The position numbers and the translations under genes were made by a program. A model generated the notes under the pieces. The model saw only the letters and a program-made list of their open reading frames with translations, ran no database searches and had not been told where the DNA came from. Shown here one piece after another: positions 23,695-30,847 of a stretch of 64,000 nt of DNA; the first letter of the stretch is position 1; each line of letters opens with the position of its first letter. Origin of the DNA: Somniosus microcephalus (taxonomy: Eukaryota); contig CM126230.1 in NCBI GenBank assembly GCA_052327205.1, positions 24,366,001 to 24,430,000 on the forward strand, read 5' to 3'.

Positions 23695-24166
23695 AAAGAA
23701 AGTATATCACGCCTTTCATAACCATCGGACGTCCCAAAACACTTTACAGCCAATGAAGTACTTTTTGAAGTGTAGTCACTGTTGTAATGTAGGAAATGCA
23801 GCAGCCATTTTGCACACAGCAAGCTCCCACAAACAGCAATGTGATAATGACCAGGTAATCTGTTTTAGTGATGTTGATTGAGGGATAAATATTGACCAGG
23901 ACACCGGGGATAACTCCCCTGCTCTTCTTCGAAATAGTGCCATGGGATCTTTTATGTCCACCTGAGAGAGCAGACAGGGCCTCGGTTTAACGTCTCATCC
24001 AAAAGACAGCACCTCTGACAGTGCAGCACTCCCTCAGTATTGCACTGGAGTGTCAGACCTAGATTTTTGTGCTCAAGTTTCTGGAGTGGGACTTGAACCC
24101 ACAACCTTCTGACTCAGAGCTTGAACCCACAGCCTTATTGATTCAGAAGCAAGGGTGCTACCCACT
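23695..24166 (-). mobile_element. DeuSINE; its first ~29 nt lie at 30128-30156 because a Tx1 LINE splits it
   Basis: The SINE consensus stops at ...gtgctacccact (24166) and resumes after the LINE as agagtgctacccactgagctacagctga. Confidence 0.9.
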
Positions 24167-24285
24167 TAAAAAAAATATATACTTTACTGAACATTAAGAA
24201 CATTTACAACATCGTGATCATTTCCTTGTATCATACAAATCAATTCCGCCGCTCTGCACAGCCATTCCGTCACCACATTTTAACA

Positions 24286-27200
24286 TCAAAACCTGAAGTT
24301 TAATTTGTCTCCTGTAACATATATTAATCGATTGTACTTTAAAAATTGTTTGTTATATACTATCTTTAAATTCCTTTCTGAATAAAACAGCCACAGAGCC
24401 GTATAATGATCTTTTAGCTTATATTTAAAATACTCTTTTAGATTGATTCTCCTCCCCTTAAAAAACAGAGCATTCCTTCTTTGCACAATCACGAATCTAG
24501 CCAAACTGAACATTAAATTAATTGCCGCTCCGCTAGACTCAGGCAGACTCTCCTGCAATCCCCATCTCAAAATTGAGTCCCACAGGATTCCCATTCTCGC
24601 TCTTCGGTCCCCACCCAGCAAAAAAACTTTGCACAACTGTTGAACATAGTACTTAAAATCATTTAACTGTGGACATAACACCAGTAAATGGGACAGAGTC
24701 TCATCCGATGTCCCACACACTGGGCAAGTTGCCCCCTCCACTCGTCCAATCTTGCACAAGACCGTGATGGTAAAAATCCGGTTATGAGCCAATTTGAAAT
24801 CCAGTTCAATCCACTCTGGACATTTAAAATTCGTCCACACTCCCTTCCAAATCCTGTTGAAGTTCAGCTGTGGGTATATACTCTGCCAAAACTCCTGACC
24901 AGCTGGTGTCTTGAATCTCCATTCTCTAAATAGAAATCTCGAGTATTACAGTTGTCAAATTGGACCAACTCTCCCCCTTTCTCCAGCAGAAAGCTTGGAA
25001 AAGCGGGACGCATTTTACTTCCTTTGGAGATTTCCGCATTTATTTCTTCCATCCAATCCTGTGGCATTGCGCTCACAATCTTCTCATACATGATCGCTAT
25101 TGCTTTTTCCTCTACCTCCTGATCCTCCTCCCACACCATTTCCCTCACTATCGCTTCCAGCAACCAACCTGGAATCACCTCGTATAATACATCTTTCACA
25201 GATATAATACCAGCTTTTATAAAAGCTTGATTAAATAAAACCTCTCCTTCAGTGTTGACCCACCTGTTCAAAAATAAGGGCTGTTCTAAAAATTCCTCAG
25301 CCCCCTTGGGCATAAACTGCACACTTTTTAAAAATTGGGCCCAAGTCTCTACAACCCCCTTATAAAACCTAGGGAGAAGTTTAATCGATTTCAAAAACAT
25401 ATTATTGTATTCCATATACAATATCCCCTGCCCTCCTATCCCACTTCGTTTTAAAAAATGCTCAAAACAATTCTTCCAAAAACTTGTATTTGACTTCTGA
25501 AGAAATCTCTTCACCCATTTGATTCTAAAGGATTTTTTCTTCAAATCAATATCTGGGAAATTGAGTCCTCCCTGATTTCTCCGTCCAATGATGGTATTGT
25601 AAGCCACCAAGGCTGGTTTCCCTTCCCATAAAAACCTCACGCAAGCCTCTCGGATGGACTTTTCCGCCCACTCAGGAATATCCTCCACCGTCAATAAGTA
25701 CAATAGCTTAGATAGCAGGAGAGCGGACACCAGTGTCGCTCTTCCTTGCACTTTCAACCACCTTCTTTCCCATCTTCCCCAAATCTTTTTAACTTTCATA
25801 ACCTTCGGTTCCCAATTTAATCGATCCACTTCTTCCCTGTCTTTCTTGTACCCCATATGCACCCCCAGAGCTTCCAAAACCCCCACCACCTTAAAGGGAC
25901 TTTCCCCCAACCATTCCCCCCTACCCTTCCTGCAACCAGGCATTGGGTCTTACTATAATTCACTCTGGCTCCTGAAGCTCTACAATATTCCTTCACTACA
26001 TCCATAGCTTTCCTCACTGACTCCCCATTTCTCAATGTTAAGGTTGTGTCATCTGCATATTGGTGTATCACCGACACCAACCCAGAACTGGGTACCACAA
26101 TCCCAACTACACCTTGTTTCTTTCGCATCATGTAACCTAATGGTTCTGCTACCAATGTGTACAGCAGTGGGGACAGGGGACAACCCTGTCTCACTGATCT
26201 CTGTATCGGAAAATACTTGGATAAAAAAACCATTACATTTAACACAGCTAAATATGTTTGAATAAAAAATCCTTATCCACTCAATGAAATTTTCCCTGAA
26301 ACCAAATGCTTCCAAAACCTTCAATAAAAACTCATGAGACACCCTATCAAAGGCTTTCTATTGATCTATCTTTAATACATAAGCCTCCCTCCCACTCTCT
26401 TCCATGAGCTCTATCGCATCTCGGATTGAGACCACAGAGTCTGCGATGTCCCAGCCTATGACTCCATAGGACTGAGAGGTCAAAACTATCTGCAGCAACA
26501 CCTCCTTCATACGATTTGCCATAACCCTCGCCAAGATCTTATAATCCACAGTTAATAATGTGATGGGCCTCCAATTCTTCAGATCCTGTCTATCCCCTTT
26601 ATTTTTATATAAGCTAAGCTTATGACACCTCTCCTCATAGATGGGGCCAGGCTTCCCTCAATTTTAATTTCCTTAAAAACTTTTAAGAGCAATGGACTTA
26701 AAATCTCAAAAAATTCTTTATAAAATTCTGCACTTAGTCCATCGGACCCTGGGCTTTACCCCCCCTTCATTCCACTTATTGCTACTTTTATTTCCGCTAA
26801 TCCTACTTCTTTGTCACACATGCTTCTCTCATCCTCCTTTAAACCCTCTTCAATAAAAGCACTAACCTTCTCCATCGCCAAATTGTCTTCTTTTGTATAT
26901 AACTCTTGATAAAAGCTGCTAGCCGCCTCTGAAATCTCCCCACTTTCATGAATGATCTTCTCCCCAACCTTCAACTCTCCAATGAATGATCATCTCTGTC
27001 GCAGCTTCTCTTGCTCTAGAAAATATCTAGTGCATCTTTCGCCCTCCAATGCACCTCTAGCCTTTGCATGGAGAATGGCCCCCTTGCATTTTAAAGCTGG
27101 CAATAATTCCCACTCTTCCTTTAGCACCCGGAACTTAGTCTCAGCTCCCTTATCCCCTCCGTCAACTGCTTTACAGACATCCATAAACCTTTTGTTTATA

Positions 27201-28130
27201 TTCTCTTCTCGACGCCGGTTAGCTGCCGCTCTCTTTTTCCCATAACGTACCGAAAAATCTTTTACCTCATATTTGAAATTGTCCCACCAAACTCTTCTTT
27301 CTTTCAAGAACAAAGGTTCCTTCCAAGCATTCTTTATTATATTTAAAATCCTTTCTTTATAAACAATTTCTTTCAGGTATTGATTGTTTAAAATCCACAC
27401 CCCTGAACCGATCTTAACTCTGCTGTTCCTAATTCTAAGAACCAAAGCCGAGTGGTCACTAAAAAATACTTTTTTTATAATAAATCTCCATCACCTCACA
27501 ACTTAACCCTTCCTGCATTAACACAAAATCTATTCAGCTCTGTTTTAAAACATCACCCACCCAACCTGCTCTGGAGAACTCCCTTTTTATGGGGTTCCAG
27601 TCCCTCCATAAGTCTCTCAAATTTAAATTTGCCATCATTTTTACAATCATCCCTCTGGAGTTATCATCCTTAAAGGTCATCTGGGCTGAAATGTCCATCC
27701 GAGATAAAAATACATTAAAATCCCCCACTATACAAGGATTTTTCACCTCTGCCACTTCAGTGAATGACCCCCAAAAAAACTTGCGACGCTTGCAATGGTC
27801 GTTCGGTGCATAGATATTAAAGAGATCACAATTAAATTCCTCCATTTTTACCCTTAGCCGCAAAAATCTCCCCTCAGTGTCCTTGTCCACCAAGGCAACG
27901 TTCTCTTTTATGGACGGACTCACCAAAACAGCCACCCCTCTACGGTTATTGTTTGCACAACTTGCAAACACCTCTCCCTTCCAAACCTTCTGAACTCTTT
28001 CTAGGATATTCTCATCCCAAAAGTTTTCTTGCAGACACAACAAGCCCGTGCCTTTAAAACCCTGCAACAACTGCTGCAATTTCTTCTCACCCCTCAGTCC
28101 ATTCACATTAATCGAGACCAATGTAATCAT
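24286..28130 (-). pseudogene. Tx1 ORF2 (APE endonuclease, RT, zinc finger)
   Basis: SINVNGL, CLQE, NIYAPN, VGDFN; DYKILARVMANR; RQGCPLSPLLY; YADD; CPVCG...HLLVLC; multiple frameshifts and stops. Confidence 0.93.
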
Positions 28131-28168
28131 GGCTCCGAAGAAGGGAAGTATGCCTGATAATCTCCCCA

Positions 28169-29988
28169 TCATTTAATCTCTGGCCCTTCCCTCCTCTCAT
28201 GCTGCTTCCCAACTTTTCGGCCAGCTGTTGCTTTTTCCTGCAGCCTCCGACTCTTTTTCACCTCCTGTTTGAACCTTCCTTGCTGTTTCAGCCTCTTCCT
28301 TGCATTAAGTTTGGGCCAAGGAGCTGCCCTTTCTCCCTCCTTCTGCCCCTCACTAACCTTTCCCTTTCCACATGATGCCACCCCACCCCTCACTTCCATG
28401 TCTCTGTCCCCCTCTAATTCCTCACTCTGAAGCTCTTCTGCAACCCTCTGTGCCTGCTCCCCATCAGATACATAATCCTGCTCCCTGTCAGATGCATCAT
28501 CTCCCATAGAGAATCTTTCTGCTATCGCAGTTTCTCCAACAGTGCCGCTCCCTTCGACCTCATCTCCACCTCTGACCCTTGCTCCCTGATCCTTCTCTCT
28601 CTGGGACAATGGCGCACCCATATTGCTCCCTTCTGGTGTCTTTGTCTCGCCGCTCCTGTCCTGCTGTCCCTTTAAGGCTCCTGCCTCTTGCACCCTCTCC
28701 TTGTCTTGCCCCCCCCTGCTCACCGAGATGTCTGACTCCCCGTCTTTCTTTGGGAACCACAATCCCAACTACACCTTGTTTCTTTTGCATCATGTAACCT
28801 AATGGTTCTGCTACCGATGTGTACAACAATGGGGACAGGGGACAACCCTGTCTCACTGATCTCTGTATTGGAAAATACTTGGATAAAAAAACCATTACAT
28901 TTACCACGCACCCCGCTCCCGCCTCCTCTCCACCCGCGGGCACCAGATTCTTTAGGGAGAGCTGAACCGTATTAAGGCTCGAGTCTGCACTCGACCCATG
29001 CTGCCCTCTGCTGTCTTTGTTCTTTTCCACTGTACTTTGTGTGTTTTCCACCATCTCCATCCTGTTCTCTGCTCTGCAATTTTCTGCCTCTTCCTGTGCT
29101 CTTTTCTCCTTCAATTTACCAGCTGTGTCCTCTGACTGCTCCTCTCCTCCGGCCGTTCCACTCACACCTCCTGCTCCTTCTCCCATCTCCTTGTCACTCA
29201 TAGAGCTTTCTTCTGCCTCACACTCACAGCAGGTGGAGCCTTTGTGACACACTCCACAGCTCTCTGCCTTGCAGCTCCGAATGATGTGTCCAGACTCGCC
29301 GCAATTATAACAGTTCAAGTCTGGACAGTTTCTTACAAGATGGTCGTGTCCAAGACAATAATAACAAACCTTCACTTGGTTATCATGCAGTACTCGGAAG
29401 TACTGCACTCCTTCCATTGTCTCGAATTTCATGCTGTACGGTAATGACCTCACCCCCTCTGGGAACCGCACCTTTAATAACGGGTTCCATCTGCTACCCG
29501 TGTTCCTGGATAGTATCTCCTCTTTATTGCTGAGCAAATTTTAATGTCCCACGATGCCAACTTTTTGATTAGCACATCGTCCTCAATATAAACTGGCAAG
29601 TTTAAGAATGAGACCACCACCTCTTCCGAATATAGCAGAGATACCTCCAAAAACTTATATCGCCAACTTTCAAACTGAGTAAAAGTCTTTCCACCTCCAC
29701 TCAGCCACTGACCATCACCTCGAACCCAACATTCGGCTTTGGTTGGCAGGCAAAGCAGCTTCCCTCACCACAGTCCTCATGTACCACTTGGATAATATCC
29801 CAAGCTCATAGCTCCTTATCCTCGCACTGAACCACCAACGTGTTTTCTTTTCCAAACCTCCTGGGGTCCCGGCCCAAATCTTTGGGCCTTTTTCTTTCCC
29901 TTCCAACCACAGTTTCTCCCCTAATTAAATTCCTCTCAGGAACACTGTCCTCTGAGGGGCCCGGCACTCTGGACCCCTCAGCAGCCAT
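28169..29988 (-). pseudogene. Tx1 ORF1 (Gag-like, zinc knuckles)
   Basis: CYYCLGHDHLVRNC and CYNCGESGHIIRSC knuckles, followed by a low-complexity acidic/basic region; frameshifted. Confidence 0.85.
28751..28907 (-). repeat. 157-bp copy of the element's own RT segment (26089-26245) inside ORF1
   Basis: Direct alignment at offset 2662 with about 7 mismatches. Confidence 0.93.
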
Positions 29989-30847
29989 CTGGCTGTTGTT
30001 TATGGGCCAAAAAGGCCCTAAAACCTGAAAAAAAAAGCCACCACCAACTTTTTACAAACTCACTCCAACTCCCTGCAGTAATCAGGCAACCAGTAACACC
30101 TGCTCACTCTTAGCCCCTCCCACCTAGAGAGTGCTACCCACTGAGCTACAGCTGATCTAAAGCAAAACTTATTTCAGTTTCCAAATAGAGGGCTGTGTGC
30201 AGAATCTGTAATCAGGACATGGCGTCGTGATTTACACGGACCATTCCATTACGAAAATTCTTTTCAACTTAATTGCTTAATCATTGGCAAGAAATTGCAA
30301 CAGCAAATATGAATGGGAAAAGCACTAATAATTGAATCTGAAAATGCAATAAAAGCAGCTTATTGCTGTATAACCCTCCTGCAATCTGCCTCGGTTCAAT
30401 CTTAAATCAAGCTTATTCAATTGAACATTGAGACTGCTTTAATTGCAGGCATGAGCCTGGAGCTGAATTTTAAATTTAAATGACACAAAACTTGGCCCAA
30501 TTTTCGTTTAATCACAGTGAAGTTACACTGCAGTTATTGGTTTGACGGCTATATCATTTTTACTGTTGCAAGTAAGCAGTGCTAAGTTGTCTACCCGATT
30601 CATGCTGCTCTCTGCTTAGTCAAAGCCGAGCTCTGTACCCGTGTACTTATAGCACGTGTACAGTGAACTTATCATCCTCTGACCTCTGGTGATAGCTCTG
30701 TTAGAAAAAGAGCCATTAGAACGACAGTTCTTTTCCAACATTAAAAATATTTATCTATCCAGGACAAGAGAAGGTCATCAGGCTCATACGTACTTGACCT
30801 AGCCCATCTGTTGATGTCATCTATTGAACCAACCATCCTTTCCCCCA

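Follow-up and report, generated by a model that had tools for sequence, protein, structure and literature searches.

Tx1-clade LINEs have been described with preferences for DNA transposons, LTR elements, microsatellites, U2, U5, and 5S (PMC4494074). Mutsu (MutsuDr1) of zebrafish is specific for the 5S rRNA gene (PMC5340908), while Keno is found in U2 genes and Dewa in the spacer of tRNA-Leu arrays (PMC3706591, PMC4494074). Other members reside in other transposons: Tx1L in Tx1D, and the crocodilian Tx1-Mar, Tx1-9_AMi, Tx1-8_Crp and Tx1-4_AMi likewise, with DNA transposons or LTR elements as their targets (PMC4494074). Two systems outside the clade are also relevant. Many Dada DNA transposons, which move by cut-and-paste and use real tRNA genes as targets, have their insertion site within the A box, at tRNA nt 8-13 (PMC3706591, PMC8869645). 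R2 elements have a restriction-like endonuclease, rDNA co-transcription, an HDV-like ribozyme, and uniform 5' junctions; every earwig R2 copy has 22 bp of downstream target at its 5' end, and pairing between cDNA carrying target sequence and the target has been postulated (PMC3774820).

The window (the whole stretch of DNA analysed here, 64,000 nt) contains a Tx1-type LINE that splits a SINE at the A box of its head. Judging from the flanks of its relatives, it almost certainly belongs to a family that targets one exact base of that A box. As with Mutsu, there is a two-ORF layout and an exact site in a Pol III-type sequence, but the target is a dispersed SINE and not a tandem RNA gene array, and there are ~2,000 copies versus tens for Mutsu. 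As with Dewa and Keno, a strict target is tied to small RNA genes, and the descriptions of those two set them apart from the present family. Like Tx1L and its crocodilian counterparts, the family inserts into other transposons, but here the target is a SINE promoter; the crocodilian cases are preferences (a 20% flank threshold, two regions of Mariner-N4; PMC4494074), whereas ~99% of our copies lie at one base. Dada shares about the same position. The resemblance to R2 lies in the uniform 5' junctions and in the earwig element's carried target, which can be compared with the apparent target-site duplication (TSD) discussed below; the other R2 properties listed above were not found here. We found no LINE specific for a SINE in the literature searched, a scope that most subscription papers and Repbase fall outside.

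The features of the window element and its host are as follows, with the basis for each in brackets:

24167-30133, minus strand: Tx1-type LINE, full-length but decayed (reading of sequence and domain searches)
30143..30158, minus strand: host SINE head, 5' portion with the first half of the A box, severed by the insertion (sequence; same head at other 5' ends)
30127..30142, minus strand: 16-nt SINE-like segment at the 5' junction, the apparent TSD (junction-variant comparison and the start of locus L368)
29989..30126, minus strand: LINE 5' UTR (sequence and alignment of copies)
28169..29988, minus strand: ORF1, gag-like, with CCHC knuckles (zf-CCHC), frameshifted (ORFs and domain search)
28751..28907, minus strand: 157-bp second copy of the RT segment 26089-26245, inside ORF1 (alignment of copies)
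24286..28172, minus strand: ORF2, with APE endonuclease (Exo_endo_phos), RT (RVT_1) and zf-RVT (domain search)
24167..24285, minus strand: 3' UTR, poly(A) signal and A/T tail (sequence and copy comparison)
24151..24166, minus strand: target, second half of the A box, with the tail joint at 24167/24166 (3' flanks of copies)
23722..24166 (23722 approximate), minus strand: body of the host tRNA-headed SINE (sequence; same orientation as the LINE)

The repeat AGTGGGTAGCAC[T/C]CT occurs at 30142-30128 and 24166-24152, with 14 of its 15 bases identical, and overlaps TAGCTCAGTGG, which we take from the A-box consensus to be the Pol III A box. Hallmarks of the Tx1 clade are present: CCHC knuckles in ORF1, APE, RT and a C-terminal zinc motif in ORF2, and a poly(A) tail. 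The ORF1 stop and ORF2 start overlap (ATGA), and ORF2 is broken by stops and frameshifts. The poly(A) signal is AGTAAA in the window copy and AATAAA in most copies, and T runs within or ahead of the A run are common in 3' tails, the window copy included. The 157-bp RT duplicate is confined to the window copy (it is absent from other copies covering the region) and possibly reflects a template jump.

We take the host to be a putative SacSINE1-like DeuSINE on the strength of an apparent Deu domain, which also suggests that the genome is probably that of a shark. Such SINEs combine a tRNA-like head (A and B boxes) with a Deu domain and an L2/CR1-type tail. A- and B-box-like motifs are visible in its head at tRNA spacing; ARAGORN and Rfam made no tRNA call on the SINE. 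In the window, the SINE has a 28-30-bp tandem duplication at 24092-24149, which includes the B-box-like motif. Six empty heads of the same SINE lie elsewhere in the window (22382, 33390, 37448, 42245, 54619 and 58490), and genome-wide there are ~1.2e5 heads by a rough estimate (exact heads: at least 15,102). SacSINE1 is described as a tRNA-headed Deu SINE with a tail in common with an L2 LINE (PMC5499810), so its carrier is probably not the Tx1 family studied here.

To place the family, we used the natural 1215-aa ORF2 frame of copy L101 as a query. Its relatives are at most 53% identical in the RT region, none of them close, and metagenome relatives (80 loci) are distant, at 25-38% identity. 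Of the best 120 hits, a single retrotransposon protein carries a name, BAC82613; it matches 11 elements that head the Mutsu supplement, headed 1.x (PMC5340908), and is therefore MutsuDr1 ORF2. That protein is 36% identical to the query over 1205 aa and scores 661 bits over the first 900 aa, versus 257 bits for human L1 ORF2 in a separate search; on these alignments, the ORF2 appears closer to MutsuDr1, a Tx1-clade member, than to L1. In an RT tree (midpoint-rooted, with Keno, Dewa, Kibi and Koshi absent), the element has a long branch and lies next to a large clade, unnamed for the most part, in which mollusc proteins occur (support 0.97). It falls outside the teleost clade holding MutsuDr1. 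We therefore describe it as Mutsu-like in its working and do not assign it to Mutsu. Insertion into 5S, the mark of Mutsu, was seen in only one of 112 copies, in a 5S retrocopy.

The survey of other copies carries the main result. Searching the 6.45-Gb genome with the last 434 bp of the LINE, without target bases, gave 2061 candidates; apart from the window itself, the 39 best hits all have an A/T tail and then the SINE, entered at the same base. For a sample unbiased with respect to similarity, we took the 1109 matches to an exact 33-mer and, going by position, retrieved 60 of the first 64; the four left out were one adjacent copy and apparent duplicates, and the SINE is present there too. 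In all 60 copies, the first bases are those of the target, intact or mutated; 58 continue as SINE, and in two an LTR element interrupts the target after 5-9 bases. Thirteen further copies, chosen by protein search, comprise 12 SINE sites and one 5S site. Excluding the window and seven loci picked through the target, the flank-blind total is 109 of 112 copies at the same A-box base of the SINE, two with the target and then an interruption, and one in a 5S rRNA copy.

The exact junction, GT[AGT]GG, follows within 32 nt in 1113 of 1286 3' ends genome-wide. Five of six further non-matching ends that we checked are mutated SINE sites (one is unexplained), and the shortfall is consistent with target decay. 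From the other side, the SINE head precedes 30 of 30 5' ends taken by position (one with a deletion), and reverse searches from sites with poly(A) plus target found the LINE family in 13/13 and 30/30. Rough counts are 1,900 3' ends and 1,500 5' ends, and the family is estimated at ~2,000 copies.

A sequence-only reading of the window had described a ~6-kb Tx1 LINE at the A box, in the same orientation as the SINE, and the ORFs, domains, and split SINE agree with it. It had also proposed a family targeting the SINE head, to be checked by aligning 3'-end flanks; the other copies bear this out, sharing the junction AGT[G/T]GGTAGCAC. Its caution that the SINE is common enough to be hit by chance can be dropped, as the probability of a random insertion at that base and orientation is ~1e-5 with 1.2e5 SINE heads (a rough figure) and 8e-5 even with 1e6. 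One published criterion for target specificity is that more than 20% of flanks are a single repeat (PMC4494074), and here 109 of 112 are, plus the two interrupted ones.

The same reading had offered the tRNA itself as a possible target, and this found no support: none of the 112 copies lies in a tRNA gene or spacer, and tRNA-like junction hits proved to be mutated SINE. Genome-wide, the junction pattern for the common GGTAGAGC D-loop (one D-loop type) gave one hit, a mutated copy of the same SINE, and the pattern for GTGGTTAGCAC (other-SINE-like) gave seven, again all mutated copies of the same SINE. We therefore rejected tRNA-gene targeting, for which these copies and patterns provide no case. 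A second tRNA-headed SINE has at least 37,391 heads starting AGTGGTTAGCAC, with one base different in the first 12. All eight pattern hits belong to the host SINE, so the second SINE is unused, though it is perhaps younger than the burst. A relaxed tRNA scan gave only noise. Among 30 loci fetched from a tRNA family search, there were only Lys and Cys genes; the tRNA-Cys genes at L376-L404 (G000:C24:~42.9-43.1 Mb) form a tandem array with a ~1.6-kb period.

The one 5S case is L368 (G000:C4:311458500-311467500), where a family copy lies at about nt 22-29 of a 5S rRNA retrocopy that has its own 15-bp TSD. This copy has a 4-9-nt duplication and, through a deletion, ORF1 and ORF2 fused in one frame. 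Two further junction patterns, aimed at a possible 5S-targeting subfamily, gave no hits, both being too strict to catch L368 itself. The position is next to the MutsuDr1 5' junction (after nt 21; PMC5340908), which is suggestive only as a link to Mutsu.

The 15-bp repeat does flank the element and overlap the A box as the sequence-only reading had it, but as a TSD it fared less well, since most of it is not a copy of the local target. Among 50 copies with both junctions (seven others were dropped for indels or damage), variants at bases 1-12 of the repeat are shared between the two sides in four cases, 5'-only in 30 and 3'-only in 30; for base 4, 5' versus 3' side, Fisher p=1.0. At bases 13-16, the 5' side hardly varies whereas the 3' side is polymorphic, e.g., C16 in 50/50 versus 31/50. 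L368 starts with CACTCTC within 5S, a non-SINE site, so these bases belong to the element. In the window's 30127..30142 segment, the last 6-7 bases are the element's own, and the remaining bases are likely to be mostly element-carried. By these variants, the 15-bp repeat is not a plain target-site duplication. True staggered-cut duplications do happen in some copies, given the rare variants common to both sides in L049, L128, L371, L050 and L051 (L049 and L128 being among the seven dropped copies) and the short duplication at L368.

The 5' variants weakly follow LINE lineage: T at base 4 occurs in 8/44 copies of subfamily A versus 1/36 of B (p=0.037), with p>0.05 in within-subfamily tests. Few copies are truly truncated at the 5' end. 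In a partly redundant set of 396 internal segment starts, the SINE head is joined to internal LINE sequence at one locus only (L360), with the join at base 0/1 and no repeat. The 5' end was unrecovered in 53/100 copies, in most of them because later insertions lay in between, and some truncations may be hidden. On the 3' side, L032 has read-through and a new poly(A) with the joint still at base 1, and L170 has a foreign 3' end at the same site, also with a new poly(A) and a joint at base 1. These single cases indicate that the true target is on the 3' side and that target homology is not required at the RNA 3' end. At the LINE 5' end, Rfam found no ribozyme and folding found no stable structure (z-scores only -0.3 to -1.1).

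L170/L220 (G000:C1:~16.46 Mb) and L221 contain LINE, SINE, 150 bp of flank, and a new poly(A), and the joint with a second SINE falls on the target base. This looks like 3' transduction, and a locus matching the flank (91%) has an empty SINE. We also considered the 154-bp piece in L170 as a second targeting family and rejected it: its relatives are old-repeat fragments (probably LTR) that lack the junction.

Our overall account, which we consider probable, combines ORF2p nicking of the A-box site with homology-guided 5' joining in this ~2,000-copy family. The APE domain of ORF2p would nick the bottom strand between GGCTC and AGTGG (base 0/1), a position that the joints of L032, L170 and L360 also favour, and polyadenylated RNA would be reverse transcribed from the nick with no target sequence required at its 3' end. 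The RNA 5' end would bear SINE head sequence, at least CACTCTC and probably 16 nt or more. After a top-strand cut of variable position, the finished cDNA could pair with the target, so that the second strand starts in register and local sequence is overwritten. Incomplete cDNAs, which would have no SINE-head handle, would seldom integrate. Endonuclease nicking of the A-box sequence is the likely cause of site choice, as far as the junctions can indicate, while the homology-guided 5' step is the somewhat likelier of the options for that stage and is less certain. Counting against that step are the weak lineage signal in the 5' variants, the genuine duplications in several copies, the negative ribozyme search and the unrecovered 5' ends. 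With its A box split, the host SINE would fall silent, and the LINE would gain ~1e5 dispensable sites.

A very different origin for the pattern would be a composite, i.e., SINE and LINE copied jointly, or segmental duplication of one founding insertion. An identical junction in nearly all copies is what such hitchhiking would produce, and true duplication seems to account for a few loci (L085/L087, L086/L088, L089/L090). However, divergence is far greater among the SINE flanks than in the LINE, and the two are uncorrelated. In 40 copies, LINE 3' ends are 97.7% alike (a figure inflated by best-hit selection) versus 87.2% for SINE flanks. In 96 copies (four of 100 having been dropped as interrupted or duplicated), mean distance is 0.077 for the LINE versus 0.219 for the SINE, and the two sets of distances do not correlate (r=0.007, p=0.29), while a positive control comparing LINE 5' with LINE 3' distances does (r=0.23, p=0.002). 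Variants of the 3' repeat track the SINE body at bases 4, 7 and 13 (p=0.04, 0.03 and 0.0005; base 16, p=0.2) and showed no association with LINE lineage at any tested base. In addition, tails vary between copies, and the DNA outside the SINE head differs locus by locus. With no LINE-SINE co-phylogeny while the control worked, we rule the composite out as highly improbable. The uncorrelated distances and more divergent SINE flanks mean that a LINE burst entered pre-existing SINEs one by one; by these distances, the host SINEs are older than the LINEs and show no common ancestry with them, and the insertions are independent.

Two other explanations accept independent insertion and differ over one step each. 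The main alternative for the 5' step keeps sequence-specific nicking but has the 5' head arise by a template jump onto free SINE RNA, guided by the shared CACTCTC. The 5'-side frequencies of T4 (5/50) and C7 (13/50) are nearer the SINE pool (6/100 and 41/100) than are those of the 3' side (12/50 and 5/50), but the pool was hand-counted from the first 100 heads listed, a sample biased to young copies. Signs of jumping also come from the window copy, with its duplicated RT piece, and from internal deletions, of which there are 19 in 119 loci. We nevertheless think this explanation unlikely, as the variants differ between LINE subfamilies and a jump would be needed at nearly every insertion. The other explanation replaces strict sequence recognition with tethering to Pol III factors or open chromatin at SINE promoters, with loose sequence read-out; Ty3 and the Dictyostelium TRE elements choose their sites by such tethering. 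It would suit a site that is itself a promoter element and a sole off-target copy in another Pol III gene sequence (5S). It sits poorly with the lack of insertions found in tRNA genes with the GGTAGAGC D-loop and with the unused second SINE, which may postdate the burst. T at base 4, present in 30/100 targets versus 6/100 first-listed heads (p=1e-5), hints at sequence read-out, confounded by SINE age. Overall, we regard tethering as quite unlikely, and A-box nicking followed by homology-guided joining is the reading we retain.

The family contains two subfamilies, ~13% apart in the 5' UTR/ORF1 region with ORF2 and target in common (L031-L069, L100-L159, L362-L374). An uninterrupted 1298-codon ORF2 frame is kept in 7 of 144 scored places, and many copies are broken by later LTR-type insertions. 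Locus L356 (G000:C34:4375700-4385600) is an ORF1-only deletion derivative, in which the last 175 bp follow directly on the end of ORF1 and both junctions are intact. At L407 (G000:C1:365348550-365349150), unrelated tandem-like sequence directly follows the poly(A) signal/3' end with no tail and no SINE, from either a later insertion or an off-target site. Part of the LINE 3' region is present in 20 sequencing runs from 10 studies, with no RNA run listed among them. Four other runs yielded contigs with the LINE 3' end, of which 16, 9, 9 and 1 cross the tail position; the window's SINE duplication blurred this comparison, which weakly indicates that the target is kept in the species of those runs.

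Tx1 targeting of other transposons was already known, and a SINE promoter as the target is an addition that is new within the literature searched. SINE promoters thereby join the known targets of sequence-specific LINEs, in numbers far above the gene-array cases. The ~2,000 dated insertions over a naturally variable pool of ~1e5 targets are a ready-made specificity scan for an APE endonuclease, and the discordant 5' repeats record, in nature, how the second strand is joined, a LINE step that is poorly understood. They also show that an apparent TSD can be element-carried, and the near absence of 5' truncation is a property wanted in retrotransposon-based gene insertion. More tentatively, a Mutsu-related APE-type LINE may have switched specificity from 5S to a SINE promoter and become a strict hyperparasite, one that leaves almost only 5'-complete copies via an R2-style carried target, kills the SINE promoter, and is able to bring poly(A) RNA whose 3' end is foreign to that site. 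It is likely, in any case, that this LINE family uses another parasite's copies as its landing sites.
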